Shown here in pieces: positions 1-22,276 of a DNA stretch of 64,000 nt (its first letter is position 1; every line of letters starts with the position of its first letter). The DNA lies in NCBI GenBank assembly GCA_042570545.1, contig JBHPGJ010000002.1:31741-95740 (forward strand). The letters run 5' to 3'. The position numbers and the translations under genes were made by a program. The DNA is from Patescibacteria group bacterium. GTDB taxonomy: Bacteria; Patescibacteriota; Patescibacteriia; JBHPGJ01. Below the pieces are notes generated by a model that saw only the letters and a program-made list of their open reading frames with translations, ran no database searches and had not been told where the DNA came from.

Positions 1-1
1 A

Positions 2-3000
2 GCTAATACCATTACCACTAATGGTGATTTTAATAATGAGAATACTTTCTCTAATTCCGGCGGTACCTTAGTGATGAATGGTGCGGGAACGCTGACCTCA
101 AATGCTTCTACCCTTAACAACCTTACTATCTCCGGCGTTGTCACACTGGCGGCTGCCACCCATACAGTAGCTGGCAACCTAGACTTATCCAGTAGCACTA
201 TTACCGCCGCCGGCTCGACCGTGGTGATGACCGGTACTTCAAATACCGTCGTGGGCGGTGATCAAACTTTGGCCAATTTCCAGATAAACCCAGCATCACC
301 TGGCACCATAACCCTCCAAACATCAGATCTAACATCAACCGGAACGCTTAATGTCTTTGCTGATGATACACTTACAATAGACACAGGCAGAATTATGACG
401 GCAAATAATATGGCGCTCAATGGTACCATTGATGGCGCGGGACTTCTCGACTTCAACCAAAATTCCGCTTTTCCATCTACTGGCACGCTCGATGCCGATC
501 TGCGTTTGTCTGGCACTGGCGCCCAAACTTTACCCGACCGGACATATGGTGGCAATGTCGAGATTTATAATGACTCAGCATCACCAAGTCGGACGGTAAC
601 GCTTGCCAGTGGCTCGCCTGTATATTCTGGCAATTTCACAGTGAATGCCACCAATGCTAACGACATTATAGTCGATGGAGCAACCAATAGCCCGACCATG
701 GACATTACCGGCAGTATCAGCTTTCCCGGCGCCGGCGGCGGTACTGATACTATAACTACCGGTACCAATACCTGGTTCGTCGGTGGGAGCGCTGACTTTA
801 CCAACGGCACATTTACCCATACGGCTGACGGAACTTTGGATATGGACGGCTCGGGCACACTGACCACTGCTAGCAATAACATTAAGAACCTCACTCTCTC
901 TGGAACAATAATACTAGCGGCGGCTTCCCATACAGTAAGCGGCAACCTAGACATGTCCAGTGGAGCAGTAACCGCTACCGGTTCAACTGTATTTATGAAT
1001 GGAGTTACAAAAACCATCGATGGCGGCGGCAACACCTTAAATAATCTATGGTTTACGCCGGCCGGACCGACAGCATACACGCTACAAAACACTGACCTGA
1101 CAGTCGGAGGTACGCTTGATATTGGTGATTTTGCACAAGTTAATATTAATGTTAACCGCACCCTTACCCATTCAGGAACGTTGAATTTAAACAGTACCGG
1201 CGCGACTGGTGGAGCTGGCCGCTATACTTATCAGTCATCTACCGCTCTCCCCACCGGCGGCACCATTGGCTCAATTCTCAGAATGGATTCATCGAGTAAT
1301 GACCAAAGCATGAATGCCCGCACTATTGGCGGTGCCTTAGAGATCTATAATAATAGCGCTAGTATCAGGACGGTGACACTGAATGCCGGCACCCAAGACT
1401 TTAATAGTACGTTATCTCTCGAAGCGCCGAGCTCTGGCACTTTGAACCTGACCGGCTCAGGTACTAATCCTACTATCGATCTGGAAGGGGACCTATCTTG
1501 TGTGGCTGGGGGTGCAACCAAGACTATCACCACTGGTACCGGCACCTGGAATGTCGCTGGCCTTGTTACGCTTACCAACTGCACATTAAGCGCTACGGCT
1601 GGCAACACTTTCAATTTTGATAGCGATGACGCTGCCACGCTTACCTCAGCCAGCGAAACATTTGATAATGTCGATATTTCCGGCACACTTACTTTAGCCA
1701 ATGAAACGCATACCGTTAGCGGGGCACTTGATCTTACTGGCAGTACGTTAACCGAAGGCACATCGACAGTATTGATGACCGGCACAGCTAATCTTACCGG
1801 TGGTGGGGAGACGTTGAATGATCTCACGATCGACGGCACGACAAATACTGTCACCATGGCGACGTCTAACCTCACTGTTGGCGGTACGCTCAATGTCGCA
1901 TCGGGCGATACCTTAACCATTGGTGACGGTTTGACGCTGACCCATTCTGGAGCAACGCTAACGCTCGCGGGAACCATCAATGAGGGGGGCGCCACTACTG
2001 GATTACTGGTGTATCAGTCAACTACGGCATTTCCTACAACGGGGTCCATTACAGCGGACCTTCGCATGGATGGAGCATCCGGCAACCAGATTCTGGGCGC
2101 AAGAAATGGTGCTAATAACTTCGGTGGTGACGTCGAGATTTACAACAACTCAGGCGTAGCAAGGACATTTACTCTCGGTACGGCTGGCGCACAAACACTG
2201 GACGTTGCTGGTGCGCTCACCCTGACGGCGAGCTCGGGAACTATCGAGTTAAAAGGAGAGACGTGGGATCCGACACTGAACGTGACTGGTGCGCTCACCT
2301 GCGACGTCAGTGCTGCGACCGAGACCATCACTGCGCCAGATGCCGTCGCCACCTGGACGTTTTCTAATAATGTGAATTTAACGAACTGCACTTACACAAA
2401 GAGTGCAGAAACCTTGGTCATGGATACTACCGGCACCCTAACCTCAGCTTCCCAGACTTTAAATAATTTAACCTTATCCGGCGTAATAACTTTAGCAGGG
2501 GCTACCCATATTGTTTCCGGCAACCTGAACATGACCGATGGCACCATCACCGCTACCGGCTCTACTGTCTCCATGGGCGGCACCTCTAAGACCATCACTT
2601 CTGATGGCGATTCTCTAAATAACCTTACTGTTACTGGCGGCTCCATCAGCAACGCTGATGCCATGACCGTGGCTGGCAACTTCACTCTCTCGGCTGGTGA
2701 TTTCTCACAACATGCAACTGCCAATGTGACCATTACCGGTGACACTATTCTTATCTCTGACGGAGCTACCTTCACTAAATCCGGTACTAGTGGAACGTTA
2801 ATACTAGACGGTATCTCAGATAATCAAACCTACCAAGACTTAAGTTCTGGAGCCAAACAGAACCTAGGCTCTGTCCAGATCGGCGCCAGTCCTGGCACTA
2901 CCAAACTGAAAAGCGACTTTGCCGCCGATGACCTGACTATTGTTGACGGTGACAGACTAGAGACCCACGGCTGGGAAGTAGACTTAGTTAATTTCTTTGA

Positions 3001-4828
3001 CTGCCAAGGGGCATGTATTCTTGATCTGGTTGATGATCCACCAAGTCAAGAGAGTAACGGCACCATTATTACCTTTGGCACTGACTTTACGATGTCTGGA
3101 ACCGGCACGGTGATCGTCTCGGGCAACGATTCTAGAATTGAACCAGACGGCACGGTAGACCAGATCGTCACTACTGGCGGTAAGATCTATGACACCTTTT
3201 ATGTTAATAATACCGGTGCCACTGACGCCGTTGATGACGTCATCATCTCCGGTGCCCTTGATCTAACCACCGATCTAATAATAAACGATGGTGAGCTAGA
3301 CTTAGATGCCAATGATCCGGCTGTTACTATAGAAAAAGATATGACCATCAACTCCGGTGGCGATATATTGCCCTCAGATACAAATGGCATAACCTTTGAC
3401 GGTTCAGCTACGGCCGGTACCTACACTGACTCTAGCTCTGGTGGCCCATTAAACATCGGTGATGTCACAGTAAACAAATCCTCCGGCACTCCGGCCACTG
3501 ACACCGTTACTCTGGCTTCCAGCATGCTAGCCGATACGGTAGTGATTAGTGCCGCCGACACTCTCGACCTGGTCGATTCAGGCTTTACCCTAGAACTAGC
3601 TAATAATGCTGCTACCGGAACAGTACTAACCACTACCGGTACCTTAGATGTTGGAACTAACTCCTTAGTTAAATACTCAGCTATTAATACAGTTGGTCAA
3701 GTAACCGTAGATAACACCGGTTACCACGACATTCAGTTCTCCGGAGCCGAGATCTACGATCTGGGCGGCAACCTGACCACCACTGACGATATTGACGGTA
3801 ACCTGACCATTGATTCTGGCGCCACTCTAGATGTTACCGCTACTAACTACAACATCGATCTGGCCGGTAACTGGACCAACAACGGTGACTTTACTGACCG
3901 GGCTGGTACCGTAACCCTTGACGGAGCCGCTACCCAGACCATGTCCGGACAGATGACTGGTGCCAGTGATCAATTTTATAACTTAAATATTACTAATACC
4001 TCTGGCTCGGCCACTACTTGTGAAGGCGCCTTTACCCCTGGTGTAGACTTCGCGGCGGCTGCTCAAACGGCCAATACTATGGACATCAGTCCCGGACCTA
4101 ACTATGTCCAGTTTCAAGATAGTGCTACCTATACCTTCCAGAACATTGATTGGCAGGGGACGGCTGGCAATCTGGTTTACTTAAGGAATTCTAATTTGAC
4201 CGGCGGAAGCTGGACACTAACTGTAGCCGGCACCCAAGCAGTAACATACGTCAACGTGGCCCGATCAAATGCCACCAGCACCATCGATGCCACCCAGATC
4301 TACAACGAAGACTGTGGTAATACTACAAATTGGGATTTTGATTCTCTTCAGTTCAGTATTACTGATATCGATATAGGCTTTGGATCACTGAGCACTGGCA
4401 TATCCAGATTTGCCACTGGTAACGGTATCGGAGCTGATGGGCCTACGCCAACCAGCGCTCATGACCTGACTGTCCTGACCGGCGCAGAGGGCGGCTATGC
4501 TCTGACTTATTACAGTACCCAGACACTTACTAGCGGTTCTGATGACATTAATGCCGCCACCATAACAGGTGATGGTGACGGAGATCCAGGATCTGAGCAA
4601 TTTGCTATCAGCTTTGCTACTGACGGCGATGCTACTATAGCGGTTCCATATCGTCAGAGTAGCAGTAACTATAAATATGAAACTTCGAGCACGGTTTCCA
4701 TTGCCACGGAGTCAGGGCCAACAGCTCTGGAGACTATTAGTGCGTATTACCTTGGGAATATGTCTACAGTGACAGCCGCCGGCACTTATACTACGACTAT
4801 TATATATGTAACTACCGGTACGTTTTAA
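2..4828 (+). CDS. Giant repetitive surface/adhesin-like protein. It is N-terminally truncated by the window edge. The Thr/Gly/Asn-rich tandem repeats suggest a beta-helix.
   Basis: The frame is open from position 2 through the ORF-track ORF 71-4828, with no stop upstream. The translation shows about four tandem repeats of roughly 265 aa (for example 'TLTSASxTLNNLTLSGVITLAxATHxVSGNLD...'). The C-terminal ~150 aa are homologous to the C-terminus of the next gene. Confidence 0.75.
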   Translation, partial: ANTITTNGDFNNENTFSNSGGTLVMNGAGTLTSNASTLNNLTISGVVTLAAATHTVAGNLDLSSSTITAAGSTVVMTGTSNTVVGGDQTLANFQINPASPGTITLQTSDLTSTGTLNVFADDTLTIDTGRIMTANNMALNGTIDGAGLLDFNQNSAFPSTGTLDADLRLSGTGAQTLPDRTYGGNVEIYNDSASPSRTVTLASGSPVYSGNFTVNATNANDIIVDGATNSPTMDITGSISFPGAGGGTDTITTGTNTWFVGGSADFTNGTFTHTADGTLDMDGSGTLTTASNNIKNLTLSGTIILAAASHTVSGNLDMSSGAVTATGSTVFMNGVTKTIDGGGNTLNNLWFTPAGPTAYTLQNTDLTVGGTLDIGDFAQVNINVNRTLTHSGTLNLNSTGATGGAGRYTYQSSTALPTGGTIGSILRMDSSSNDQSMNARTIGGALEIYNNSASIRTVTLNAGTQDFNSTLSLEAPSSGTLNLTGSGTNPTIDLEGDLSCVAGGATKTITTGTGTWNVAGLVTLTNCTLSATAGNTFNFDSDDAATLTSASETFDNVDISGTLTLANETHTVSGALDLTGSTLTEGTSTVLMTGTANLTGGGETLNDLTIDGTTNTVTMATSNLTVGGTLNVASGDTLTIGDGLTLTHSGATLTLAGTINEGGATTGLLVYQSTTAFPTTGSITADLRMDGASGNQILGARNGANNFGGDVEIYNNSGVARTFTLGTAGAQTLDVAGALTLTASSGTIELKGETWDPTLNVTGALTCDVSAATETITAPDAVATWTFSNNVNLTNCTYTKSAETLVMDTTGTLTSASQTLNNLTLSGVITLAGATHIVSGNLNMTDGTITATGSTVSMGGTSKTITSDGDSLNNLTVTGGSISNADAMTVAGNFTLSAGDFSQHATANVTITGDTILISDGATFTKSGTSGTLILDGISDNQTYQDLSSGAKQNLGSVQIGASPGTTKLKSDFAADDLTIVDGDRLETHGWEVDLVNFFDCQGACILDLVDDPPSQESNGTIITFGTDFTMSGTGTVIVSGNDSRIEPDGTVDQIVTTGGKIYDTFYVNNTGATDAVDDVIISGALDLTTDLIINDGELDLDANDPAVTIEKDMTINSGGDILPSDTNGITFDGSATAGTYTDSSSGGPLNIGDVTVNKSSGTPATDTVTLASSMLADTVVISAADTLDLVDSGFTLELANNAATGTVLTTTGTLDVGTNSLVKYSAINTVGQVTVDNTGYHDIQFSGAEIYDLGGNLTTTDDIDGNLTIDSGATLDVTATNYNIDLAGNWTNNGDFTDRAGTVTLDGAATQTMSGQMTGASDQFYNLNITNTSGSATTCEGAFTPGVDFAAAAQTANTMDISPGPNYVQFQDSATYTFQNIDWQGTAGNLVYLRNSNLTGGSWTLTVAGTQAVTYVNVARSNATSTIDATQIYNEDCGNTTNWDFDSLQFSITDIDIGFGSLSTGISRFATGNGIGADGPTPTSAHDLTVLTGAEGGYALTYYSTQTLTSGSDDINAATITGDGDGDPGSEQFAISFATDGDATIAVPYRQSSSNYKYETSSTVSIATESGPTALETISAYYLGNMSTVTAAGTYTTTIIYVTTGTF
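83..3200 (+). repeat. Protein-level tandem repeats with a period of about 795 nt (about 265 aa), four copies. They are diverged at the DNA level.
   Basis: The recurrent motif block 'GTLTS(N/A)S.TLNNLT(I/L)SG...LA.A.H.V.GNL.' starts near residues 5, 253, 516 and 783 of the translated ORF. Confidence 0.5.
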
Positions 4829-4891
4829 TTAATGGATAAATGCATACCCAACTTTGACATATTATGATAAAGTTGCTATACTATAGGAAGA

Positions 4892-6034
4892 TTGAGGGAC
4901 GTCGAACCTCAAACCATGATAAAATCAACAAATAATAGAAATAATTTAATTATTACGAATATGATTAGAAAATTATCAACACCTTTATTAATAGCGGCCA
5001 TGTTGGCCTTTTTTGTGTTTCCGGTCAATACTACTCACGCGGCTAACCTGACCAGTCTTAAGGACGTGATGTCCATCTTGACTGACTCAGCTGAGGCAAA
5101 CCACACTATATCGTTTGTCGCCCCGTCTGCAGTAGCTAACAATACTTCCATGACTATTACGTTTGGCACTGGTTGGGATCTGTCTGACCCGATCGATGAA
5201 GACGATATTGACGTTGCTGGTAGCACTGAAGGTGAATTAACTACCGCGGCAGACTGCACTGGTGCGGAAAATGCCGGTGTTAGCGTAGCTGGTCAGGTCA
5301 TAACGATTGAGCTTTGCGACACTGATGGCGGTGATTTTACCGGCTCTGAAACGATTACTGTAGAGATCGGTCTTCATGCCACCTCTTCAGGATCCGGCGC
5401 AAACCAGATCACTAACCAGACTGTTGCCCAAAACAACACCGATCCAACTATTGTTGTTGCCACGGCTAGTGATAGCGGCACATTAGCAACAGAAATAATC
5501 ACTGATGGTGATGTCACTGTAACTGCCACCGTAGATCCGTCAGTAACTTTCTCCATAACTGATACGACAGTCGGTTTTGGTCCGCTTGATGCTGCCCAGG
5601 AATGTTGGGCCATGGGTACCGCACCGGCATCTTGTAACTCAACCAAGCAAACTGCCCACACCATGAGTGTGGGAACTAATGCTACTGGCGGTGTGAGTTT
5701 GACATATTCTGGTCCTTCTATGACCAGTGGTGGAGATACAATTAACGACGGTACTATGACCGATGCTGACGGCACTCCCGGTACGGAAGAGTTTGGCCTT
5801 GGTATAGACGATAACGCTGCCACCCTTACCATAACAGCGGCTTATGATGAGAACACCGATAATTATAAGTTCGACTCGGCTAGTGATACCACGCCAATTG
5901 AAATTGCCACCTCCGGTGGTAATCCGGTAACCAGCACCACTATGGATACACACTACATGGCCAACATCGCTGCTGATACTGAAGCCGGCAGCTATAGTAC
6001 CGATATCATCTACGTCGCCACCGGAACCTTCTAA
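4892..6034 (+). CDS. Secreted protein with an N-terminal signal peptide. Its C-terminal domain is shared with the upstream giant protein. The start may instead be the internal ATG near 4916.
   Basis: There is a hydrophobic signal-like segment 'LSTPLLIAAMLAFFVFPVNTTHA'. The C-terminus aligns with that of ORF 2-4828 ('SITD..GFG.L...AH..V.T.A.GG..LTY...TSG.D.IN...D.PG.E.F...NYK...IATS.G...AG.Y.T.IIYV.TGTF'). Confidence 0.7.
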   Translation: MRDVEPQTMIKSTNNRNNLIITNMIRKLSTPLLIAAMLAFFVFPVNTTHAANLTSLKDVMSILTDSAEANHTISFVAPSAVANNTSMTITFGTGWDLSDPIDEDDIDVAGSTEGELTTAADCTGAENAGVSVAGQVITIELCDTDGGDFTGSETITVEIGLHATSSGSGANQITNQTVAQNNTDPTIVVATASDSGTLATEIITDGDVTVTATVDPSVTFSITDTTVGFGPLDAAQECWAMGTAPASCNSTKQTAHTMSVGTNATGGVSLTYSGPSMTSGGDTINDGTMTDADGTPGTEEFGLGIDDNAATLTITAAYDENTDNYKFDSASDTTPIEIATSGGNPVTSTTMDTHYMANIAADTEAGSYSTDIIYVATGTF

Positions 6035-6086: not shown

Positions 6087-7097
6087 ATGCTTGAAAATTA
6101 TTACAAAAAAATGCTGAAATCATTAAATCGTTTATTGTTACTTAGCGCTTTGATGGTCGGCATTTTTTTTGTAGCCGAAAGTGCTCAGGCCCTAACCTTG
6201 ATCCCGCCCTCAACAGAAATAGGCGCCGTGCCAGGCCAGAAGATCGATGTTGAGATAAAATTGTTTAACGAAGAGCAAGTACCGAAGATCGTATTTTCTG
6301 ATGTGACCAACTTTACCGCCTCAGGTGAGACCGGCAGTCCGACCTATAGTTTTGATGCTGAGCCATTTGGTATTGCCACTTGGTTTGAGGTGCTTGAAGG
6401 TCCGCTGTCAATAGAGCCTGGCCAAAGAGTAACCATACCCGTAACAATAAACGTACCGGCCGATGCAGAACCGGGCGGTCATTATGCCGCTTTGTTCTTC
6501 GGCAGTGATCCAGATAAAGATAATAATAACGAGGCCCCCCAACTGGCTATCGGTCAAAAGTTGGGCACCCTATTCCTAGTACGGGTCGATGGTGACATTG
6601 TTGAAGGCGGCGCTATTGCCACCTTTGGTCTAGCCGAGGGCAAAAAGAAATTATCTCACTTACCGGCAACTTTTGAGGTTCGTTTTGGTAATACTGGCAA
6701 CGTCCATCTTAGACCGCAGGGGAGTGTAGTGGTGAAAAATATGTTTGGCGGACAAAGTGCTAACCTGGTAATCAATGAAAGCCGGGGCGCTACTTTGCCG
6801 GAAACAATAAGGAAGTATGAAACCATCTGGGAGAAAAATGCTGTCAACGAAGGCGGTTTCTTTACCCAGTTGGGTAATGAGTGGAAGAACTTTGCTTTTG
6901 GTAAATATACCGCTACGGTAAATCTTCAGTACGGTACGGAAAATCCTACTCAAACAAGCGATAGCTTCAGCTTCTGGGTGATCCCCTGGCGGTTAATAAT
7001 TACATTTATAGTCCTGCTGGCTGTCGTTGTACTGCTGCTGATTGTCTTTATTAAAAGATACAACGCTTGGGTTATAAAAAAAGCCCAAGGTCAATAA
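6087..7097 (+). CDS. Cell-surface protein with an N-terminal signal sequence and a C-terminal transmembrane anchor. It may be DUF916-like.
   Basis: N-terminal hydrophobic segment. The C-terminus 'WVIPWRLIITFIVLLAVVVLLLIVFIKRYN' is a TM helix followed by basic residues. The motif 'VPADAEPGGHYAALFF' resembles the DUF916 family; this is recalled from memory, not searched. Confidence 0.55.
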   Translation: MLENYYKKMLKSLNRLLLLSALMVGIFFVAESAQALTLIPPSTEIGAVPGQKIDVEIKLFNEEQVPKIVFSDVTNFTASGETGSPTYSFDAEPFGIATWFEVLEGPLSIEPGQRVTIPVTINVPADAEPGGHYAALFFGSDPDKDNNNEAPQLAIGQKLGTLFLVRVDGDIVEGGAIATFGLAEGKKKLSHLPATFEVRFGNTGNVHLRPQGSVVVKNMFGGQSANLVINESRGATLPETIRKYETIWEKNAVNEGGFFTQLGNEWKNFAFGKYTATVNLQYGTENPTQTSDSFSFWVIPWRLIITFIVLLAVVVLLLIVFIKRYNAWVIKKAQGQ

Positions 7098-7112: not shown

Positions 7113-7967
7113 GTGATTAAATTCCACTGGCGATGGATAAGTTATGCGATACTTCTCCCGGTGCTTGTTTTGGCACTTGGAGTTCATTTAGTATCGGCTA
7201 TTGATGTGTCGGTATCAGCCACTGTGCCGAGTGATCCACCAATCATCCCTGATACCATAGTTCAATTTAGCGGCTATGCTTATCCCGGAGCTGATATTAC
7301 CATCAGGCAAAATGGTTCAGTGCTGGCCACTACGGTTGCCAATCCACAAGCAAATTTTAATGTGTCTAAAAAAATAAATCCCGGTACTTATACTTTCGCT
7401 ATATTTGGCGAGGATGACAATGGCTTAACGGGACGGGTCTTTAATATTACCCTAAGTATCACCGAAGGAGCGACAACAACCATAAGCGGCATATTCTTAG
7501 GACCAACCATCGATGCTGATAAAAGCACGATTGAAATTGGCGAAACAATTACCATTTTGGGTACCACCGTGCCCAATAGCACGGTGCTGATCACGGTAAA
7601 TTCAAATGCCCAAATTTCCTCACTAGTAACGGCCTTAAATGACGGTAGCTACTCTGATCAATTTATTGGCGGTCTAGGTGGTCTGGATATTGATACCCAC
7701 TCAGCTCGGTCCAAGGCCACGGCTCCGGATAATTCCATATCAGAAAATAGCAATACCATCTCCTTTGCCGTAGTTGATCAGGATGTTTGCGCTACGGCCT
7801 CGCCCGGTGATATAAACTGTGATGGCTTTGTAAACTTGGTTGATTTTAGTATTTTCTTGTTCTATTGGGGCTCAACTAATCCGGCCGAACCACGAGCTGA
7901 TATTAATAATGACGGCCGAGTTGATATCATCGACTTTAGTGTCATGTTGTTCTACTGGACGGGATAA
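7113..7967 (+). CDS. Secreted protein carrying a C-terminal type-I dockerin-like module (a duplicated Ca-binding segment).
   Basis: N-terminal signal/TM segment. The C-terminus reads 'GDINCDGFVNLVDFSIFLFYW...ADINNDGRVDIIDFSVMLFYW', two 'DxNxDGxVNxxD' loops each followed by a hydrophobic helix. Confidence 0.75.
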   Translation: MIKFHWRWISYAILLPVLVLALGVHLVSAIDVSVSATVPSDPPIIPDTIVQFSGYAYPGADITIRQNGSVLATTVANPQANFNVSKKINPGTYTFAIFGEDDNGLTGRVFNITLSITEGATTTISGIFLGPTIDADKSTIEIGETITILGTTVPNSTVLITVNSNAQISSLVTALNDGSYSDQFIGGLGGLDIDTHSARSKATAPDNSISENSNTISFAVVDQDVCATASPGDINCDGFVNLVDFSIFLFYWGSTNPAEPRADINNDGRVDIIDFSVMLFYWTG

Positions 7968-7971
7968 ATAT

Positions 7972-9096
7972 ATGAAGAAATTTATTTGGCCATTATCATT
8001 AACACTACTTATAACTGGATTTGTATTGGCGGCAAAACCAGCCACTGCCGCTCGAGTCTTTGCCTATCCAGCAGAGATGGAAGCGGCCATCAATGAGACT
8101 TTTGTGATTGATATTCGGCTTGATAGCGAACAGGAAATAATTAATGCTGTCCAAGCCCAAATTAATTTCCCAGCTGACTTATTGGAAGTGGTGGATGTTG
8201 ACCGGGGCAACTCCTTTTTAGAATTATGGGTGGAAGAACCGCAGATAGACAATAAGACCGGCCAAGTTAGTTTTGTCGGCGGCATACCTCAGGGTAGCTA
8301 TGTGGTTGAAGGCAACCTGCTGACCTTAACTTTTAGGGTGAAATCAGCCGGCTCGGCTATTGTTAGTTTTAATGGGCAAAATACCAGTGTACATCTAAAT
8401 GATCCTTTAGGCACCGCCGCAGAGATAAGTTTTGAGAATGGATTATATGCTTTGGGTAATCCAATGGCCTTGAATATTGTGATCAATTCCTCAACCCATC
8501 CGGACGAAGATCAGTGGTATCAGAATAATTTTGTAGAGTTTGATTGGAATACCAGAGAAGAAGCCGCTTATAGCTATACATTATCTATTAATCCCACCGC
8601 CGAACCTGATGAGACTTTTGATACCAATGAGGGTCAAGCCAGTTTTGAAGAAGTAAATGATGGTACACATTACTTTATATTAAAAGAAATATTACCGGGT
8701 GATGACTGGGAATTAGTTGGTCGTCGTCGGGTAAAGATTGATAAAACCCCGCCGCTGCCGATTACTACTAACTTTGGACAACACCAAAATATCGCTGAGG
8801 GAAAAATATTTCTAGCTTTTTCAACCACTGATGTCGGTTCAGGTGTAGATCGATATGAATTGACTGAGGGTGATGATATATATACTGATGTTACCAGTCC
8901 GTATGTTTTGGCCGATCAAAACAGAACCAGCGATATTGTCATTAAAGTCATAGATAAAGCCGGTAATATCAGGACTACTACCTTGCCGGCTCAGAATCAA
9001 ACCACTAAACAAGCACTACCGTTATGGGTTATAATTGTTATTGCGGTAATTGCCGTGGTCGCTATAACTACTTATATACTTAAAAAATCTAAATAA
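7972..9096 (+). CDS. Membrane-anchored protein with an N-terminal cohesin-like module and a C-terminal TM anchor.
   Basis: The start was moved to the ATG at 7972 (MKKFIWPLSLTLLITGFVLAAKPATAA, a signal peptide), because the ORF-track start at 7840 overlaps the upstream gene. The ~130-aa N-terminal region has a cohesin-like alternating hydrophobic/Gly pattern. The C-terminus 'LPLWVIIVIAVIAVVAITTYILKKSK' is a TM anchor. It is a paralog of the next gene. Confidence 0.7.
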   Translation: MKKFIWPLSLTLLITGFVLAAKPATAARVFAYPAEMEAAINETFVIDIRLDSEQEIINAVQAQINFPADLLEVVDVDRGNSFLELWVEEPQIDNKTGQVSFVGGIPQGSYVVEGNLLTLTFRVKSAGSAIVSFNGQNTSVHLNDPLGTAAEISFENGLYALGNPMALNIVINSSTHPDEDQWYQNNFVEFDWNTREEAAYSYTLSINPTAEPDETFDTNEGQASFEEVNDGTHYFILKEILPGDDWELVGRRRVKIDKTPPLPITTNFGQHQNIAEGKIFLAFSTTDVGSGVDRYELTEGDDIYTDVTSPYVLADQNRTSDIVIKVIDKAGNIRTTTLPAQNQTTKQALPLWVIIVIAVIAVVAITTYILKKSK

Positions 9097-9101
9097 CCAT
9101 T

Positions 9102-10385
9102 TTGATGATTCGTCGCGCTATTATTATTGCCAGTCTAATAATCTTGGTTATACCATTATTTCCCCGTCCAGCTCTGGCTGCGGGTTCGATGTTTTTAGCG
9201 CCTAATTCCGGTAATTTTTCACCCGGCTCGACTATAACTATGAGTGTGGTGATCGGTACCGGCGGCCAGGCCATTAATTCAGCTCAAGCAACGATTGCTT
9301 ATTCGGATGATACTTTGGATTTACTAAGCGTTTCCCGCGGTGGTTCGATATTTACCCTCTGGCCGGTAGAGCCTAGCGGCGGTGGTGGACAGATAACATT
9401 TGCCGGCGGCTTGCCTACGCCCGGATACAACGGCAACGGTGGTTTAATCATATCAGCCACTTTTCGGGCGGCTGCTTTAGGCACGGCTACGGCTAGAGTG
9501 ACCAGTGGACAGTTATTATTAAATGACGGCTCAGGTACAAATATTCTAACCGGTTTTGGAGCTGCTACCTGGTCGATAACCGAAACGCCTGAACCGCCAC
9601 CCCCGACTGAAGTTATTGAGCGTTTACCAGCACCCGAGGTAAGTTCGGAAACGCATCCCAATCAAGATACTTGGTATAATGAGGAACTGATAAAATTGAA
9701 ATGGAATAAATTAGAAGGGGCGCTTGATTTTAGCTATGTGTACGATGATCAAGAAGGCACTACTCCAGATGATAATCCAGAGGGCAGTGATAGTAGCATC
9801 GAAATAAAAGATACCAGTGATGGTATTGCTTATTTTCACATCAAGGTCAGAAATGAAGGTGGCTGGAGCGATACGGCTCACTTTAGAGTAAAAATTGACA
9901 CCACACCGCCTAAAAAATTTACTATTAGACTTGAGGGAGAGAATCCAACCGGCATATTGAGACCCTATATACATTTTAGGACAACTGATGCACATTCAGG
10001 CATTAAAACCTACCAGGTATATATAGATGGAAACAAAGGTACAACGGTTAAATCAGGAAAAACCACCCCCTACCGTTTAAGTGAACTGAGTCTGGGTGAG
10101 CATGAAATCCAAGTAGAAGCCACCGATAATGCTGAAAATAGCCGATCAGCAAAATTAATGATTACGGTTGTCGATCGTGGCGATGATGGCGGGGTACAAT
10201 ATATAACCAAATATGTAGGCGAAGGCTCAATTTTCCGACAATTTGTATTTTGGTTAATGTGGATATTATTACTGCTGCTGTTAATAATAATCATGTTCTT
10301 TATCTTGTGGAAACGGAAAAAGAAGAAAGAAGACGACGAAAAATACCGGGGTATTCCCAGTAATTATAGCCAACCAAAAAGTTAA
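9102..10385 (+). CDS. Membrane-anchored cohesin-like domain protein; a paralog of 7972-9096.
   Basis: Signal peptide, then the cohesin-like block 'GSTITMSVVIGTGGQAINSAQATIAYSDDTLDLLSVSRGGSIFTLWPVEP...GLIISATFRAAALGTATARV'. The shared middle motifs are 'HPNQDTWY' and 'TTDAHSGIKTY'. The C-terminal TM 'FVFWLMWILLLLLLIIIMFFILW' is followed by KRKKKKE. Confidence 0.7.
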   Translation: MMIRRAIIIASLIILVIPLFPRPALAAGSMFLAPNSGNFSPGSTITMSVVIGTGGQAINSAQATIAYSDDTLDLLSVSRGGSIFTLWPVEPSGGGGQITFAGGLPTPGYNGNGGLIISATFRAAALGTATARVTSGQLLLNDGSGTNILTGFGAATWSITETPEPPPPTEVIERLPAPEVSSETHPNQDTWYNEELIKLKWNKLEGALDFSYVYDDQEGTTPDDNPEGSDSSIEIKDTSDGIAYFHIKVRNEGGWSDTAHFRVKIDTTPPKKFTIRLEGENPTGILRPYIHFRTTDAHSGIKTYQVYIDGNKGTTVKSGKTTPYRLSELSLGEHEIQVEATDNAENSRSAKLMITVVDRGDDGGVQYITKYVGEGSIFRQFVFWLMWILLLLLLIIIMFFILWKRKKKKEDDEKYRGIPSNYSQPKS

Positions 10386-10386
10386 T

Positions 10387-11358
10387 CTAATCTAATGTTT
10401 GCGGTGGGTATATTTCTGGCTGATTTTTTATTATTACCTTAATAACGGCTTTCTGTTTTCTTAGAGAATCTTTTTTATCTGTGATCGGCGTAGTAAAATA
10501 CCTTTTTAACAGACCGATATAAGTAAGGCCGTATATAACCCAGAGCAAGCCGATAAATGATATCTTACTGGCCCAATAGTCTCCTGACTGGCCAAATTTT
10601 TTATAGTATCTAAACAGTGACGAATAATATTCCTGCTTGGTCCAATAAGGATCAAGCCGGGTGGTGCTTTGTCCCCTAAGGTGAACTATATCAGTGGTCG
10701 GAACCAAATAAATATTTTTTTGTTTATTAATTATCCGCCTGGCCAGATCAACATCATTGAAAAATATGGGGAAATTCTCATCTAACAATCCTCTGATTTC
10801 ATCAATAACCGACCTTCTAAGCATCAGACAAGTGCAGGCCGCCTGCTCAATTATTTTTTCCTGATCAAACTTGTCTTTTATCATCAGGAACTTCTTCGCT
10901 GATGGAGTAGTGATCTTGGCAAAATGATGTAGGCCAGAGGCTAGCATTCGCATTACAGTCGGTAGTTGCCGGTGGTAACCGTATTGGATACTGCCATCAC
11001 TATTTAGAAATCGGCAGGTTACTCCGGCAGCTGATGAATTTCGATCTAAATAACCGCTTAGCTCGGTCAAGGTGTTTTTCTCTAAAATCACATCGTCATT
11101 AAGCATCAATACATAATCACCTGTGGCCTGTGCGTAGCCCTGGTTATTGCCGGCGGCGAAGCCGATATTATTTTTATTGATAGTTAATAACGCATTTGGG
11201 AATTCTTCTTGAATAAGTTTTACTGTGTTGTCCGAGGAAGCGTTGTCGATGATAATTAATTCAAAACCATCGGCAAAATCAGATCGACTGATCGACTGCA
11301 GACATTCTTTAATACGCCCCTCGCTGTTCCAGGTGACAATGATTATTGAAATTTTCAT
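10387..11358 (-). CDS. Glycosyltransferase family 2.
   Basis: N-terminus 'KISIIIVTWNSEGRIKECLQSI...LIIIDNASSDNT' is a GT2 signature; a DxD-like motif is also present. Confidence 0.8.
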   Translation of the reverse strand: MKISIIIVTWNSEGRIKECLQSISRSDFADGFELIIIDNASSDNTVKLIQEEFPNALLTINKNNIGFAAGNNQGYAQATGDYVLMLNDDVILEKNTLTELSGYLDRNSSAAGVTCRFLNSDGSIQYGYHRQLPTVMRMLASGLHHFAKITTPSAKKFLMIKDKFDQEKIIEQAACTCLMLRRSVIDEIRGLLDENFPIFFNDVDLARRIINKQKNIYLVPTTDIVHLRGQSTTRLDPYWTKQEYYSSLFRYYKKFGQSGDYWASKISFIGLLWVIYGLTYIGLLKRYFTTPITDKKDSLRKQKAVIKVIIKNQPEIYPPQTLD

Positions 11359-12422
11359 TCTGGCGGTTGTATGGCATCAAGAAAGCGATTAGCTGTTTTA
11401 TGCCAGTCAAAATGTTTGGCAAAGTGACCAGCCTTATGACCCATAAGCTTTCTCAGATTCTTAAATTTAATAAGTTTTAACATAGCGGCTGCTAAATCAT
11501 GAGGCCGAGCAGTTACGCACAGGCCGGTTTGATCGTGTTCAATTGATTCGGCCAGCCCCGGCAGGTTATAGACGATAGACGGTGTCTTATAATTAGCAGC
11601 GTCGTATATAGGCGCATTCCAGCCGCGACTAGGAGCAGTTGATATTATGGCCCAGGCTCGTTGATACTGTTCGGCCAGTTGAGCTGGACTTAATTTGCTA
11701 TACCAACGGATGTTGTTGTTTATCCCTAACTGAGCAGCTTGGGTTACAATTTTTTGTCTGTATGTTGGCCCCTCGTTGTTTATTACCCACAACGTTGACG
11801 TCGGGTATTGGGGCAGCGTCTGGGTAAAGGCATCTAAAATATCCTCAAAATTATTTTCGGCCTTAAGTGAGCCGTGATACAACCAAGTTGGATTTACAGT
11901 CTTGGGGACATTAACCTGATCAACATTAGTAACCAATCCGGGGGGTAATATATAAAGACGCCCAAAATCAGATGAATTTAGTTGATCGTAGATATGTGGA
12001 GAGGTTGTGAAAACCAAATCATGACGATGGGGCTTGAGTTGTTTGTTTGTTATCTGCTTGTCAAGTGAGGATTTAGCATTATATTTTTGATGCACAAATA
12101 TAATTCGAGAATTTGCCGGAACATAAGAAGAGGTGGCGAATGACTTATGGTTTACGGTCTCGGCCACATAATCGGTAGTACCTGAGGCTTTATCGTTCCA
12201 AAATTGTCGAGCTTGACTACTGATATTATTTTCACCACCGCGGCGAATATAAGTAATACCGTTTTGGGCCGATATATCATGACCTTGGTGGTGCTGGCTG
12301 GACAAACAAGTTACTTGATGCCCACGGGCAGCAATTTTCTCAGCTAAGGCGGCAACAAAATGCTCTGGCTCGCCAGCTAATGGATGACTGGTATCTCTGA
12401 TATTTAAAAATAAGAAATTCAT
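11355..12422 (-). CDS. Glycosyltransferase group 1 (GT4-like).
   Basis: Rossmann-like N-terminus 'FLFLNI...AALAEKIAARGHQVTCLS' and a C-terminal GT1-like region. Its stop overlaps the next gene's start, so the two are likely co-transcribed. Confidence 0.7.
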   Translation of the reverse strand: MNFLFLNIRDTSHPLAGEPEHFVAALAEKIAARGHQVTCLSSQHHQGHDISAQNGITYIRRGGENNISSQARQFWNDKASGTTDYVAETVNHKSFATSSYVPANSRIIFVHQKYNAKSSLDKQITNKQLKPHRHDLVFTTSPHIYDQLNSSDFGRLYILPPGLVTNVDQVNVPKTVNPTWLYHGSLKAENNFEDILDAFTQTLPQYPTSTLWVINNEGPTYRQKIVTQAAQLGINNNIRWYSKLSPAQLAEQYQRAWAIISTAPSRGWNAPIYDAANYKTPSIVYNLPGLAESIEHDQTGLCVTARPHDLAAAMLKLIKFKNLRKLMGHKAGHFAKHFDWHKTANRFLDAIQPPE

Positions 12423-15506: not shown

Positions 15507-15977
15507 ATGTCACTAAAAGATAGAATCGAGGCTGATTATCGTAAAGCCTTTAAAAGTAAACAGACCGAAGTCATGTCAGCTTTGCGCCTGCTTAAAGCAG
15601 CTGTAAAAAATGCGGAAATCGCGAAACGTAAAGATTTTGAAGATGATGAAGTAGAAAAGGTAATTAACCAAGAGGCTAAAAAAGTAAGGGATAGTATCGA
15701 AGCTTACCAACAGGGAAATCGTCAAGATCTGGTCAAGCAAGAAGAAGCTCAACTTAAGGTAATGGAAGACTATCTGCCCGAGCAGTTAAGCCCGGAAGAG
15801 TTAAAGGATATTGTTCACGACGTAATAAATCGATTACAAGCTAGTCGGCCCCAGGATATGGGACGAGTGATGAAAGAGATAATGTCTGTCACCGAGGGAC
15901 AAGCTGACGGTAAGCAAGTAAAAGAACTGGTCCAATCATTTCTAACATCAAATCAGGATAATTCTCAAAACCCATGA
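15507..15977 (+). CDS. GatB/YqeY-domain protein.
   Basis: Matches the YqeY family pattern 'LKDRIEADYRKAFKSKQ...LRLLKAAVKN...LKVMEDYLPEQLSPEEL'. This is the conserved rpsU-yqeY neighbourhood. Confidence 0.8.
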   Translation: MSLKDRIEADYRKAFKSKQTEVMSALRLLKAAVKNAEIAKRKDFEDDEVEKVINQEAKKVRDSIEAYQQGNRQDLVKQEEAQLKVMEDYLPEQLSPEELKDIVHDVINRLQASRPQDMGRVMKEIMSVTEGQADGKQVKELVQSFLTSNQDNSQNP

Positions 15978-18900
15978 GTAAAAGGCGCAAGTCTAACAAG
16001 ACCAACGTCTTAGTTATTATCGCTGCCCTAACCGCTGCAGTTTCAGTTGGTGGATTTTTTAGTCTGGTAAGCGTATCGGCTCAAACCTCATTTTCAATTG
16101 AAGATATTGGCAGCTCGATTGGTCTAGGCTCGGCTGACCTCAAAGATGTAGTTATAAATGTAATTAAGTGGGCGCTGGGTATACTAGCCCTAGCGGCGGT
16201 GGCCATAATGATCTACGGCGGTTTTCTATGGATTACAGCTCGGGGCCGGGAAGAACAAATTGAAAAAGCCAAGAAAGTAATCATTGGCGCCCTGATCGGC
16301 GTGGTCATTGTATTGCTATCGTGGGCAATTGTACTGTTTGTGGAGCGGTTTATATCAGGCAGTACCCAGACGGGGGGTACGGTTTGTACACCGGGCGACC
16401 AGATACCGCCAATACCCGCGACTGCTTGTTTTGTCTGTAATGCCACTGGTACGTCCTGGGTGCCGACAGGTGATCCAGCGTGTATACCAGGTCCGTCAGT
16501 ATTTACTTTGACTGACGTTGAGACTTCTAATAATGGCGATGCTACCGATGTACATCTTTGCAGTAATGCCAACAGTATCTTTAATCATAGACTTAATGCT
16601 CAAACGATCCTTGATGCTGATACCCTGGGCGATCTGGGGATTTATGAAAATCCCAACACACCCGGTGAGATTGAAGTGCTCGGATCTTTCATACCGCTAA
16701 CTAACTCAGCTACTTGGAAACACCAGCTGCATTGTTCAAATGATCGTACTCAATCATGCAATAATGATGCTGATTGTGGCGGTGCGCCAAATACTTGTGA
16801 CAAATTATTTGCAGCCAACACTGACTATGAAGCGCGATTTCCCCAAAGTATAGAAAATTTTTCAGGTGATTTTCTCCAAGCCTGTAGTGCCTTACCCGGC
16901 TGCAGCTTTAATAATATTACTAATAATTTTGAATTTGACTTTCACGTCGGCGTTACCACCGATATAGTGGAACCAACCATTGTCTCGGCTGATCCTATGC
17001 TGCCAGGCAATCCCGGCTACCCCGACCGCACCATTTCTCGATATCCGATCATTGATGTAAGTTTTAATGAACCGATTGATATGACGACGGTAGCTGCTCT
17101 TGATGTGATGGGAGTGGCCCGGCCAATACCGGCTAATGTAAAAATTGAACAATGGGATAATGATCCAGACGCTGGTGGTGCTTATGTGGTCGATGTCGAT
17201 CCAAATATAATTCAAGTTCAGGCCAAGCCGCAAGGCTTTAAACTAAGTTTAGATGGCGGTCATCTATTAGAACCCTTTACCTGGTATAAGATTATTGTTG
17301 ATAATGTTGAGGACCTGTGCGGCAACAGTATGGTAGCCCAAGTTGATTGGAATTTCCAAACTACCGATGCCGTACCCGGTGTGGTTGGTGTTTATCCGCC
17401 GGCTGGCAGCTCAAATGTTTGTCCTGATACTAAAATAGTAGTTACTTTTGGCACCACGATGTTTAATAGCGATGTCACTTTTCAGGTAACTGGAGGGTCA
17501 GTCCCTATAGTGATTACTCTGCCAGCAGCGTCAACAATGTTTCCCGGTCCTTATACTTGGACTGATGGAGGCGGCAATACGATTAGAGTAGTTGATCCAG
17601 GGCCAACGGCTGATAACAATTTCCGGGTTTATGAAGTTACGCCCGGTGTGCCGTTAGATATTAATACTACCTATGACGTGGCAATAACTACTACCCTCCA
17701 AATTGATGTTAACGGCACTACCTTAAGTCATAACTGGCAGTTTGCTACTTCTACACCCGAACTATGTGCTTGCACGCCGTTTGTGGCCACTGTTCAGCCC
17801 AATCAGGGCCCGCGTGGTATGTGTGTATCAATAGTTGGCGAGTGTTTTGACGGCACCGCAGCTCATCCGGCAACGGTTAGCAACGTGGAATTTGACGTCG
17901 ATTATGGCAATCCACCTCCACCAGCCCCTTGGACCTCGGGTGAAGTTACATACAATATTTTATTACCGGATATTATCGGTACCAGTATACCGCTGATAAA
18001 TACCAACGATGGCAATAATCCAATATTCTTTAACGGTGACTGGCCGCGAGCCCGGGTTACTATAGCTTATGCCGACCCTGCATATGGATCGCATAGCTCT
18101 GATCCGGCCACTAATTCCTTCTTTGTCAATTCAGATAATCTGGCTGACGGGCCGTGCTTATTCTCACTAAATCCTGGTGCCGGTATTGCCGGTACCACAG
18201 TTAATGCTAAGGGTATTAGATTTGGTGATCCGCCCCCAGCACAAACAACGGCTGAAATTCACTTTGAGGATGGCTCCGGCGGAGCCAACGCCGGCTGGCT
18301 GCCCGGCGGCTGGTCACAGACCGATATACTAACAAGCGTTCCCGGTTGGGCCATAGATGGCGATGTCTTTGTCCGTAACGACGCCGGTGATTCTAATAAA
18401 ATTTACTTTGATGTCATACCGCCGGCCCCAACAAGTCCAATGGTACTGGGACATTGGCCAATTTGTGCCTCAGCCTGCCTGAATGCCGGTATGGGCGCTG
18501 ATTTTAATCTAAATGTTGAAATGGATCCGACCACGATAGATGGCAATACTATCAACGTCTGGAAATGTACTGATGGACCGACATGTAATGTTTTTGATCC
18601 GATACCAGTAGCCATAACCGTGCCGTCATATGTTTTCAATCCAATAATTCCTATGAACCGGGCTGAGTGGTTTGGTCAAAACGACTTTGATCCTATTGAG
18701 TATTATCGAGTGATTATGAGTAATGGTATTTTAGCTCTGAGCGACGGCACGCCGATCACCAATCTAAATTACGATGATCCAAATAACGCCATCAACGGTC
18801 TGGATAGCTTCAGCTGGATATTCCAAACCGGCGCCTCAGCTTGTGATATAGATACTATTAATACACTGCCTGATGCAGTTACCATGACCTTTGCCAATCA

Positions 18901-21900: not shown

Positions 21901-22276
21901 GGGCAGTTTTATCACCGGTATGACCACCAGTAGCTGGCCGACCTCTTGGCGCGGTAACTTCGCCAATCAACTGGGTTCCAATCAGTTGCCGGTTGATCCC
22001 TTGAATGTGTTTGATAATTGTCCGGTCGGATTTGATCAGACAGCTTGCTGGGATGATTCGATCAAACAATTTATATGCAATCAAGAAAGCCACATTTATG
22101 GTTATAAAACCGATCAAGGCTCCGACTATGACTTGTACGCCAATTTGGAATATGAAGGCTTGGGTGCCTGGACCAATTTTAATACGGCCACCGATATCTG
22201 TGCTGACGCTAGTGTCCAGACAGTTGCGCCAGGATCTCGCTGTGGCTGCTTTGACTATCGATTACAAAGTCCTTAA
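15974..22276 (+). CDS. Giant (2100 aa) Cys-rich extracellular protein with an N-terminal VirB2/TrbC-pilin-like two-helix membrane domain.
   Basis: N-terminus 'VINVIKWALGILALAAVAIMIYGGFLWITARGREEQIEKAKKVIIGALIGVVIVLLSWAIVLFV' has two hydrophobic helices separated by a basic loop. The remainder is Cys-, Gly-, Asp-, Asn- and Pro-rich with Ig-like stretches. The start uses an ATGA overlap with yqeY. Confidence 0.8.
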   Translation: MSKRRKSNKTNVLVIIAALTAAVSVGGFFSLVSVSAQTSFSIEDIGSSIGLGSADLKDVVINVIKWALGILALAAVAIMIYGGFLWITARGREEQIEKAKKVIIGALIGVVIVLLSWAIVLFVERFISGSTQTGGTVCTPGDQIPPIPATACFVCNATGTSWVPTGDPACIPGPSVFTLTDVETSNNGDATDVHLCSNANSIFNHRLNAQTILDADTLGDLGIYENPNTPGEIEVLGSFIPLTNSATWKHQLHCSNDRTQSCNNDADCGGAPNTCDKLFAANTDYEARFPQSIENFSGDFLQACSALPGCSFNNITNNFEFDFHVGVTTDIVEPTIVSADPMLPGNPGYPDRTISRYPIIDVSFNEPIDMTTVAALDVMGVARPIPANVKIEQWDNDPDAGGAYVVDVDPNIIQVQAKPQGFKLSLDGGHLLEPFTWYKIIVDNVEDLCGNSMVAQVDWNFQTTDAVPGVVGVYPPAGSSNVCPDTKIVVTFGTTMFNSDVTFQVTGGSVPIVITLPAASTMFPGPYTWTDGGGNTIRVVDPGPTADNNFRVYEVTPGVPLDINTTYDVAITTTLQIDVNGTTLSHNWQFATSTPELCACTPFVATVQPNQGPRGMCVSIVGECFDGTAAHPATVSNVEFDVDYGNPPPPAPWTSGEVTYNILLPDIIGTSIPLINTNDGNNPIFFNGDWPRARVTIAYADPAYGSHSSDPATNSFFVNSDNLADGPCLFSLNPGAGIAGTTVNAKGIRFGDPPPAQTTAEIHFEDGSGGANAGWLPGGWSQTDILTSVPGWAIDGDVFVRNDAGDSNKIYFDVIPPAPTSPMVLGHWPICASACLNAGMGADFNLNVEMDPTTIDGNTINVWKCTDGPTCNVFDPIPVAITVPSYVFNPIIPMNRAEWFGQNDFDPIEYYRVIMSNGILALSDGTPITNLNYDDPNNAINGLDSFSWIFQTGASACDIDTINTLPDAVTMTFANQQVGFVSTPYGPSDACSGGGQILNPNNNSWFWDDLGTPNFTVNPTGPGFGLNQTVVQAVNENLAVAPEQLCTEAARIDPQPARDCSDITIDYAHCVDNLDCQDYDGIPATIECPAATCDDVTNRCNPIVFGLTPNNGPLGTWTSVNGCYLGGYQSPTCFNPTQPEHGNPCNFDSQCGIGGECRGSRVIFHNQVPAKWPAVCGAPGSTWSDTSIIVEVPDKDTPPGDDAVTGPVEVFRSIDNFSAMSPADFTVNANPLAPGLCWAIPNQGPEQTLVTLIGDNFGFPRDIANDKVYFYSSTAPGNRVEVASYIDWQNQQIQVRVPAGAETNLDIAHIWYPNEVAVFKSLLQSNPVKFDVNANACGATCSNDAECVAVGPNLGCDATGCCGTAPDVDFVNTYPGINEVNVCRNTLVTVSFDMAMIPSTLNANNITLENLTAGGIVSPTSLNRGSQVIKLSYGLLDAGTDYRITVTTNVANSQGVHMLNNRSWTFQTRAQTPQESGICNIAFVNVTPGNHDYTALNENMTFNAQALDATGQPIIPIPGVLDWAWLWESTDTNIVNLLGPVDTDTVNTDALANGSVLIRANANATVGWVGTVIGQATANVRFCENPWSYTDVPGCAIGTCNENYNFTTGYCRGNAPPLLPVLDTSIPNRGWLTQNAVLRKQYLFRIPNTEDGIGIRVFANPGLLSVQEWYNQEVPNPGTIQALTVDGYDAIRDGTSVYVGATNYTAATGLNGRIFLFSYNSDAGPETVNIFNQLLDYISFNTNITTSTCLAVPAVPDKVCIARDLKRVNGVRTVAGLLNGYRAGGQGGGGSNLVKNKGFEVDDSTNYDTAAGYDNAVAGDDRPNGWSEPPATGTRDSVVKRGGAFSVKIETNGNQRYVYQDIQIEQGKKYIVSGWIRTDLEIVGGSKAALTTDCVDGGHSVNNAGCNLYHPAGVGLSGISEWTRQSFIVEANMPTSSRPYLRVNCYNGPNAASTGKIWCDDISVVEGTSIYPDLASGSFITGMTTSSWPTSWRGNFANQLGSNQLPVDPLNVFDNCPVGFDQTACWDDSIKQFICNQESHIYGYKTDQGSDYDLYANLEYEGLGAWTNFNTATDICADASVQTVAPGSRCGCFDYRLQSP

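Follow-up and report, generated by a model that had tools for sequence, protein, structure and literature searches.

How is a surface fibre fastened to the cell that bears it? The question is raised by three adjacent genes, here called A, B and C, which span positions 7113-10385 on the + strand of a 64,000-nt stretch of DNA (the window) from a Patescibacteria group bacterium. The Candidate Phyla Radiation (CPR), or Patescibacteria, comprises a large share of bacterial diversity, and its members live attached to host cells. To our knowledge, how these bacteria build and hold their surface fibres is barely known, with the Pam pilus described only in 2026. An earlier note on this DNA, made from its sequence, regarded the trio as a secreted dockerin protein followed by two membrane-anchored cohesin proteins, forming a display or cell-cell attachment system. 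The answer we favour, to which we give about an even chance, is that protein A is a pilin-derived terminator, the dockerin of which plugs into the cohesins of B and C, thereby tethering a pilus.

The three genes lie where the earlier note placed them, with the operon-like packing it described: all are on the + strand, and 4-5 nt apart. A (284 aa; 7113-7967) has a GTG start, the ATG of B (374 aa; 7972-9096) is 4 nt past the stop codon of A, and the TTG start of C (427 aa; 9102-10385) is 5 nt past the stop codon of B. Gaps around these genes, including that on the upstream side, are 4-15 nt. An alternative NCBI model of A (P0032, 265 aa) begins at a TTG 19 codons downstream, losing the signal peptide; homologues favour the longer form beginning at the GTG at 7113. 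NCBI entries identical to A and B, from a 105-kb contig, bear the names “dockerin type I domain-containing protein” and “cohesin domain-containing protein”, respectively, and are assigned to a Patescibacteria group bacterium, in agreement with the CPR-like organism originally envisaged. The domain-level identity of A and B is correct and already present in NCBI naming, hence it is not new.

Protein A begins with a signal peptide (aa 1-29) and an N-terminal strand with the sequence IDVSVSATVP (aa 30-39; nt 7200-7229). Two immunoglobulin (Ig) domains follow, at aa 49-128 and aa 139-221, and the C-terminal part (aa 231-284; nt 7803-7964, + strand) is a type I dockerin, identified through Pfam, an AlphaFold2 (AF2) model and a PDB profile search. 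Pfam Dockerin_1 (PF00404) matches aa 231-278 with 33.4 bits, relative to a gathering cut-off of 22.9 (E=5.4e-8), and Big_6 matches A with 31.8 bits, relative to a cut-off of 27.6. The duplicated dockerin strings quoted previously are both present, DINCDGFVNLVD at aa 233 and DINNDGRVDIID at aa 263, corresponding to Ca2+-type loops at aa 233-244 and 263-274 with the 12-residue pattern D-x-[DN]-x-[DN]-G-x-x-[DN]-x-x-D; A is the sole protein in the window with such loops. In the AF2 model of A, built from 34 sequences with a mean pLDDT of 90.3, C-terminal helices occupy residues 242-250, 260-262 and 272-283 with pLDDT above 92, each long helix coming after a Ca2+-type loop. The modelled C-terminus has the arrangement of an F-hand dockerin, with duplicated ~22-residue loop-helix segments and three helices overall.

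The same assignment emerges from the family to which A belongs. A profile of this family, when compared with PDB sequences, matched type I dockerins, with 2y3n_B at 3.4e-5 followed by 4fl4_A, 5nrm_B, 1daq, 2mte and 2vn5_B, and a precomputed PF00404 match was present in nearly all A homologues among the matches listed. In each of the 58 unique A-family proteins, the C-terminus is a dockerin-like duplicate, with the consensus ...DLNxDxRVNLVDFSI...W...DxNxDGxVDLxDFSIMxYxWTG, and none of the 58 has a transmembrane (TM) helix. The structure comparison proposed in the earlier note succeeded for B, the model of which retrieved cohesins, and for A returned only tandem Ig/fibronectin type III (FnIII or FN3) pairs, as the Ig domains dominate that search, making it uninformative on the dockerin fold.

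Protein B is a candidate receptor for such a dockerin. Behind its signal peptide is a cohesin module (aa 27-162; nt 8050-8457), and two domains resembling Ig/FN3 come next (aa 171-256 and aa 265-338). A TM helix (aa 351-373; nt 9022-9090, + strand), recognised in both the AF2 model and the sequence, and a KKSK tail complete the protein. Pfam Cohesin (PF00963) matches aa 37-136 with 32.6 bits, relative to a cut-off of 24.1 (E=1.1e-7). The AF2 model, based on a 25-sequence alignment with a mean pLDDT of 89.1, places the signal helix at residues 6-19, followed by a beta module (27-162), and the TM helix at 351-373. The top Foldseek match in the PDB was 2w1n, the cohesin-FN3 pair of Clostridium perfringens GH84C (E=1.8e-10), with further cohesins including 6kgf_C (TMt 0.76, root-mean-square deviation (rmsd) 2.5 Å), 2vn5, 1g1k, 4dh2, 4uyq and 5m2o; many solved cohesins were matched with TMt 0.72-0.77 and rmsd 2.5-3.0 Å. 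The module is modelled as a cohesin fold, a nine-stranded beta-sandwich of the jelly-roll type, with an identity to characterised cohesins of only 13-18%.

Protein C has an equivalent layout, with a signal peptide, a cohesin-like module at approximately aa 27-160, two Ig-like domains, a TM helix recognised from the sequence at approximately aa 381-403 (nt 10242-10310, + strand) and a charged cytoplasmic tail. It aligns to B by BLASTP with 28% identity over 340 aa (E=4e-35), beginning at residue 19 of both proteins and including the N-terminal module, consistent with the paralogy previously proposed. The other shared features pointed out at that time are also present: both sequences can be seen to start with a hydrophobic, signal-like segment and to end in a hydrophobic helix with Lys/Arg behind it, and the motifs HP[DN]xDxWY and TTD..SG..Y occur in each, with H176, P177, W182, D287, G291 and Y295 being nearly invariant columns of the family. 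Three close relatives of C (33-36% identical), treated as likely orthologues, exceed the Pfam Cohesin cut-off (L015, 35.0 bits; L014, 28.2 bits; L009, 27.9 bits). Ten cohesin paralogues from related loci, each the second or third of its locus, were sampled: all match Pfam Cohesin at E<=0.0032, and five exceed the cut-off, these three relatives of C among them. Of 25 B-family members, 20 match at E<=0.01. Hence the cohesin modules originally suggested for both proteins stand in B on Pfam and structural grounds, whereas in C the module is probably cohesin-like by homology to B rather than by a Pfam match of its own. B and C belong to separate lineages, with the best matches of B being first paralogues and those of C being later paralogues, and the cohesin module is kept in every B-family paralogue. 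Each has one cohesin, and neither has a carbohydrate-binding module (CBM).

The genes upstream suggest what such a joint might hold. The pilins of the Pam system in Ca. Mycosynbacter amalyticus have a linker strand between an N-terminal domain (NTD) and a C-terminal domain (CTD) of the truncated-Ig type, and polymerise through donor-strand exchange, in which each pilin inserts its linker into the CTD of its neighbour (10.64898/2026.03.03.709456). The same system includes PamT, a tip subunit consisting of a CTD only; the TM-anchored chaperones PamC and PamD; and PamR (32.8 kDa), in which an additional strand at the N-terminus precedes two FnIII domains and a TM helix at the C-terminus, and which is predicted to be both the cap and the tether of the fibre (10.64898/2026.03.03.709456). 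Within the window, a 380-aa protein (4892-6034, + strand) has this pilin architecture, its NTD and acceptor CTD being separated by VTVTATV (aa 208-214; nt 5513-5533), the linker or donor strand. The NCBIfam model CPR_Pam_pilin_C (NF058581) matches aa 241-380 with 71.8 bits, relative to a cut-off of 55, and VTVTATVDPS (aa 208-217) is placed exactly between the N-domain and this match. The linker columns V-x-V-[ST]-A-[TS]-V are conserved in the pilins of related loci.

Ahead of the pilin is a giant secreted protein (71-4828, + strand) of more than 1585 aa, its open reading frame (ORF) running off the edge of the window. Homology to the pilin acceptor CTD is seen over the last ~150 aa (BLASTP E=6e-21, 38% identity, covering pilin aa 217-366 only), with the alignment beginning directly past the pilin linker strand, and the pilin hidden Markov model (HMM) matches the extreme C-terminus of this and other giants. 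No Pfam or NCBIfam families were found in the giant. As its C-terminus carries the pilin acceptor domain only, it is probably a tip subunit, and a candidate distal adhesin. Between the pilin and A is a candidate membrane-anchored pilus chaperone of the PamC/PamD type (336 aa; 6087-7097, + strand), with a signal peptide and a C-terminal TM helix. An NCBIfam scan of the chaperones, short B paralogues and A forms for models named after Pam matched pilins alone, and no TM-anchored protein with a free N-terminal strand, as described for PamR, was found. Nor were the features of a sortase-assembled pilus present: neither the giant nor A has an LPXTG tail, the pilin ends in ...IYVATGTF, and no sortase was seen among the annotated neighbour genes.

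The proposed connection between A and this pilus is the strand at its mature N-terminus, where VSVSATV is similar to VTVTATV, the donor strand of the pilin. Within the close A family, the signal peptide is followed by V-x-V-(T/S)-A-T-V-P and then a Pro-rich linker, with A36, V38 and P42 being at least 90% conserved. This strand is the best conserved part of the A N-terminus, yet it is unpacked in the AF2 model, where residues 23-48 are a coil with pLDDT of 54-68. The motif [VI]x[VI][ST]A[TS][VI], which was defined post hoc, occurs twice in the 18,697 aa encoded by window genes (pilin aa 208 and A aa 32), relative to an expectation of 0.086. Longer A homologues make the relationship more explicit. 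P0099 (452 aa), which is 49% identical to A and has a dockerin, aligns to the window pilin (E=2e-13) across the signal peptide, NTD and linker, with the alignment stopping at VQVSATV/VTVTATV, and the long homologue P0138 also aligns to this pilin (E=1e-8). Similarly, four long A forms in related loci match pilin HMM columns only as far as the linker, after which come Ig domains plus the dockerin. Therefore the A family looks, from these alignments, to have kept the donor half of a pilin and exchanged the acceptor half for Ig spacers and a dockerin, such that A resembles a pilin-derived subunit rather than the free docking ligand originally proposed. Separately, the stretch between the N-terminal strand and the first Ig domain is highly variable in A homologues (those of L030, L041, L046, L050, L057 and others), and may contain Cys-rich CGNG..E.GE.CD.GN repeats (DUF4215-like), long poly-Gly runs, FN3, or a full pilin N-domain.

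From the computed domain identities, paralogy, gene order, pilin family membership, and the homology between long A forms and the NTD-linker part of the pilin, we infer two contacts, one between dockerin and cohesin and the other between the strand of A and the pilin CTD, as well as a role in contacting the host. A, B and C would form the membrane-proximal end of an operon encoding a Pam-type pilus, a CPR-specific fibre built by donor-strand exchange, with the gene order mirroring assembly from tip to base. The giant would be the tip adhesin, accepting a strand only, while the 380-aa pilin would form the shaft, its linker VTVTATV filling the acceptor domain of the subunit ahead. A would be the terminator or adaptor: it would donate its VSVSATV strand and, since it has a donor strand but no acceptor domain, would cap the last pilin, such that growth stops. 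In place of the acceptor domain, A would offer two Ig spacers and a C-terminal Ca2+-type dockerin to B and C, type I membrane proteins that would each hold a cohesin about three domains above the membrane. Insertion of this dockerin into these cohesins would provide a non-covalent tether for the pilus, or for the giant adhesin directly, on a cell that would have no usher, sortase or outer membrane. A would thereby correspond functionally to PamR, but with a non-covalent joint between dockerin and cohesin where PamR has its TM helix.

The arrangement of these genes is conserved across many species. A genome scan with a B profile, using one genome per species, identified B relatives in the genomes of at least 137 species, and ORF-level HMMs were iterated on the 80 best loci. 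These 80 were nearly all from Patescibacteria/CPR lineages, with four labelled “uncultured Gammaproteobacteria” and several just “bacterium”. The recurring order, on a single strand, is a giant with a pilin C-terminus, a chaperone, a pilin, a chaperone, A, B, a second B paralogue and sometimes a third. Counted over 83 non-duplicate loci, A was found in 64, was directly upstream of the first B in 47, and had a chaperone-family gene directly upstream of it in 41. Among the 19 loci lacking A, the sequence available upstream is shorter than 1.5 kb in ten, and short A-like ORFs that fall under the threshold occur in several others. Cohesin paralogues number two in 48 loci, three in 20, one in 11 and four in four. 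The constant core seems to be a giant surface protein, then A, then two to four cohesin-TM proteins. When the B profile was compared with 1.84 billion cluster representatives, approximately 3,658 clusters (50% identity) matched at E<=1e-30, a count that takes in giant Ig-repeat proteins and merged gene calls.

One subgroup of loci also encodes, downstream of the B paralogues, proteins of ~250 aa that combine a cohesin and a dockerin behind an N-terminal hydrophobic segment (L057 12376-13122; L065 12913-13668; L071 12957-13712; L076 11827-12612, - strand; L087 12883-13638). Both modules exceed their cut-offs in L071 (29.2 and 28.2 bits) and L076 (25.1 and 23.6 bits). Their architecture is adaptor-like, as would be expected in a working cohesin-dockerin network. 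Candidate “Rosetta-stone” fusions of A to B were rejected, as these database proteins of 735-950 aa proved to be two B paralogues in one ORF. In five of the database proteins, of 735-890 aa (P0155, P0159, P0163, P0176 and P0178), an internal TM helix is followed by a second signal peptide, and they are either true B-B fusions or merged gene calls.

Several results weigh against A being a pilus terminator docked onto B and C. Firstly, Pfam Cohesin had no match to C at E<=1. Secondly, the preprint describing Pam makes no mention of cohesin or dockerin, and instead proposes the TM-anchored PamR as the tether (10.64898/2026.03.03.709456). Thirdly, HMM detection yields a pilin in only 27, and a chaperone in 45, of the 83 loci. 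Fourthly, one A subgroup instead has an N-terminal domain plus FN3, and is found behind giants without a detectable pilin CTD; hence the dockerin-cohesin module is more general than Pam pili. Fifthly, a position-specific scoring matrix (PSSM) of 30 pilin linkers gives A 10.2 bits at aa 30, where the 90th percentiles of controls are 4-7 and their maxima 12-13, and the best PSSM match is upstream of the first Ig domain in only 26 of 57 A-family proteins. The PSSM thus gives moderate support only for the similarity of the strands, and a strict donor-strand regular expression matched only six of the 58 A-family proteins.

A broader proposal, which we hold only tentatively, is that across much of the Patescibacteria, cohesin-dockerin pairing is the standard fastening of donor-strand-exchange pili and giant adhesins alike, with a pilin-derived terminator, A, capping the fibre and docking reversibly, and in a Ca2+-dependent manner, onto a hetero-oligomeric base. 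This base would be made of two to four ancient cohesin-TM paralogues, replacing the usher, sortase or TM-terminator solutions. If so, host-contact fibres could be shed or exchanged in a regulated manner.

The A-B module being found also in loci without a detected pilin or chaperone fits another arrangement, which we consider unlikely, in which B and C are scaffolds for the stand-alone surface display of A, an Ig adhesin, via the cohesin-dockerin contact, and the pilus genes are merely co-located. The domain identities and adjacency of A and B hold in this case too, and non-cellulosomal cohesin-dockerin pairs are widespread (Peer et al. 2009, cited in PMC2930009 and PMC6030884). However, display leaves the conserved, unpacked N-terminal strand of A without a role. 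It also does not account for the fixed gene order, with a chaperone-family gene immediately before A in 41 loci, or for long A forms carrying a true pilin NTD plus linker. Hence the attachment system of the earlier note is upheld in spirit, and its non-cellulosomal nature is borne out by the single dockerin and the lack of enzymes or CBM, but it overlooked both that A appears pilin-derived and that the trio is the tail of a pilus operon, as indicated by the NF058581 match. A tether joining the pilus or giant adhesin to the membrane is more specific, and better supported, than display or attachment in general.

The docking of A onto B and C presumes that the two folds are partners, whereas the homologies might be real without any partnership: the dockerin would be a Ca2+-stabilised module for binding host glycans or cell wall, and the cohesins would be beta-sandwich spacers or bind other ligands. 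The low identity of B to characterised cohesins is in keeping with this, as are the dockerin helices, which have a DFSI..W motif that is specific to the family and differs from the recognition residues found in the dockerins of cellulosomes, and an essential dockerin-domain protein of a Saccharibacterium has been interpreted as targeting glycans (PMC10633639). Yet one dockerin gene pairs strictly with two to four cohesin genes in 64 of 83 loci, the dockerin is retained by every one of the 58 A-family members, and single proteins containing both modules occur in the same operon family, making this explanation improbable. Orthology of A to that essential protein, SEML1_0315 of Southlakia, was considered and rejected, as that gene encodes 927 aa, stands alone and has another context (PMC10633639).

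It is more improbable still that B and C are themselves PamR-like terminators and tethers, inserting their own N-terminal strands, with A being an accessory adhesin or regulator at the pilus base. The description of PamR, with its strand, two beta-sandwich domains and TM helix, is close to the short B paralogues of ~300 aa (cohesin, Ig and TM) in many loci, but this idea is weakened by the first strand of B (aa 27-32) being packed into the cohesin sandwich in the AF2 model, with no free extension; furthermore, the B N-terminus lacks the V-x-V-x-A-x-V motif, and the Pam NCBIfam models match neither B, C nor the short paralogues. A cellulosome is ruled out, as there are no carbohydrate-active enzymes or CBM, only one cohesin per protein, and a single dockerin in the window.

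The explanation we favour, of A as a terminator docked onto B and C, can be compared with several known systems. The Pam operon of Ca. Mycosynbacter amalyticus is similarly CPR-specific, and shares the NTD-linker-truncated-Ig CTD pilin, candidate TM-anchored chaperones, a distal subunit with only a CTD, and, to the extent that PamR can be compared by its description, a terminator consisting of an N-terminal strand followed by two Ig/FnIII domains. It differs in that the candidate terminator A ends in a dockerin rather than a TM helix, anchoring is left to two to four separate cohesin-TM proteins, and the distal subunit is joined to a protein longer than 1,500 aa. Terminators and adaptors of chaperone-usher pili (PapH-type) likewise donate a strand to the last pilin and cannot accept one, ending polymerisation at the cell-proximal end. 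However, in this locus there is no usher or outer membrane, anchoring is proposed to occur via dockerin and cohesin, and there is no sequence relation.

For the anchor, there are parallels in the cellulosome anchoring scaffoldins of Acetivibrio (Clostridium) thermocellum and ScaE of Ruminococcus flavefaciens, in which a cell-bound cohesin of the same fold catches a secreted dockerin and holds a large assembly, as would be the case here. By contrast, this locus lacks both a CBM and carbohydrate-active enzymes, there is a single cohesin per protein, a TM helix serves as the anchor in place of SLH or sortase attachment, and the cargo would be a pilus or adhesin. GH84C of C. perfringens (2w1n), along with the toxin-complex pairs of this species, offers the best structural match to B and has the same succession of a cohesin and an FN3-like domain outside of cellulose degradation, but these modules are on secreted glycoside hydrolases, neither on TM stalks nor in a pilus operon.

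In the literature searched, there was no paper linking cohesin-dockerin pairs to donor-strand-exchange pili, the Pam system or Mycosynbacter. Non-cellulosomal cohesin-dockerin pairs, the NCBI domain names and the Pam pilus were known already; relative to the papers searched, it is the link to a pilus that is new. If correct, it would give the cohesin-dockerin pair a new role as a fibre anchor, instead of an enzyme scaffold, and would explain how a donor-strand-exchange pilus can be tethered without an outer membrane, usher or sortase. The pair would also be small, conserved and soluble, and therefore testable in vitro although the organisms are uncultured, with the large size of the family meaning that the result would apply widely.

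There is also a similarity to the WxL loci of Firmicutes, which are characterised by DUF916/WxLIP proteins. The candidate chaperone at 6087-7097 itself has weak Pfam matches only, but homologues occupying the same slot match WxLIP_PGBD (PF06030), two of them above the cut-off of 27.3 bits (29.5 and 28.3 bits), which hints, from sequence matches, that CPR Pam chaperones are related to WxL-locus proteins containing DUF916. The chaperone-family proteins adjacent to A share with WxLIP proteins both the PF06030 match and the combination of a signal peptide and C-terminal TM anchor; on the other hand, no WxL-domain proteins were found here, and the relation is weak, as the majority of scores are close to the cut-off or under it. 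The members of the chaperone-slot family concerned are those at 6087-7097 in the window, 4515-5450 in L001 and 7255-8205 in L019.

The cluster from the pilin to C may be one transcription unit, for which the evidence is weak, comprising the short gaps, a promoter-like site before the pilin, and the finding of no terminator-like sites in the intergenic gaps of the gene cluster. This promoter-like site (4854-4882, + strand) consists of TTGACA, 17 nt and TATACT with an upstream TG, making 11 of 12 consensus matches; it is a consensus match only, and such sites are no more numerous in the region than in shuffles. Two glycosyltransferase genes (10387-12422, - strand) are convergent with C. Some related clusters contain a gene encoding Wzy_C plus TPR, resembling an O-antigen ligase or PglL (L001 5633-7999; L004 9200-11470), which possibly functions in pilin O-glycosylation.

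The giant proteins mentioned in the earlier note do flank the locus, the first ending at 4828 and the second, of 2100 aa, being encoded at 15974-22276 (+ strand). The N-terminus of the latter is a type IV secretion system (T4SS) pilin domain (PF18895, 33.6 bits relative to 26.6; Mbov_0395-like pilin in NCBIfam), fused to ~2000 aa including Big_5, making it an unusually large “pilin”. Elsewhere in the window, Rfam identified a transfer-messenger RNA at 38673-39080 (- strand; 72.8 bits relative to a gathering score of 47), which was not reported by ARAGORN. The genes for the giant protein and pilin (window 1-6000) are richer in G+C, at 0.47-0.50, than most of the window, at ~0.40, and there is a further high-GC patch at 34-36 kb.

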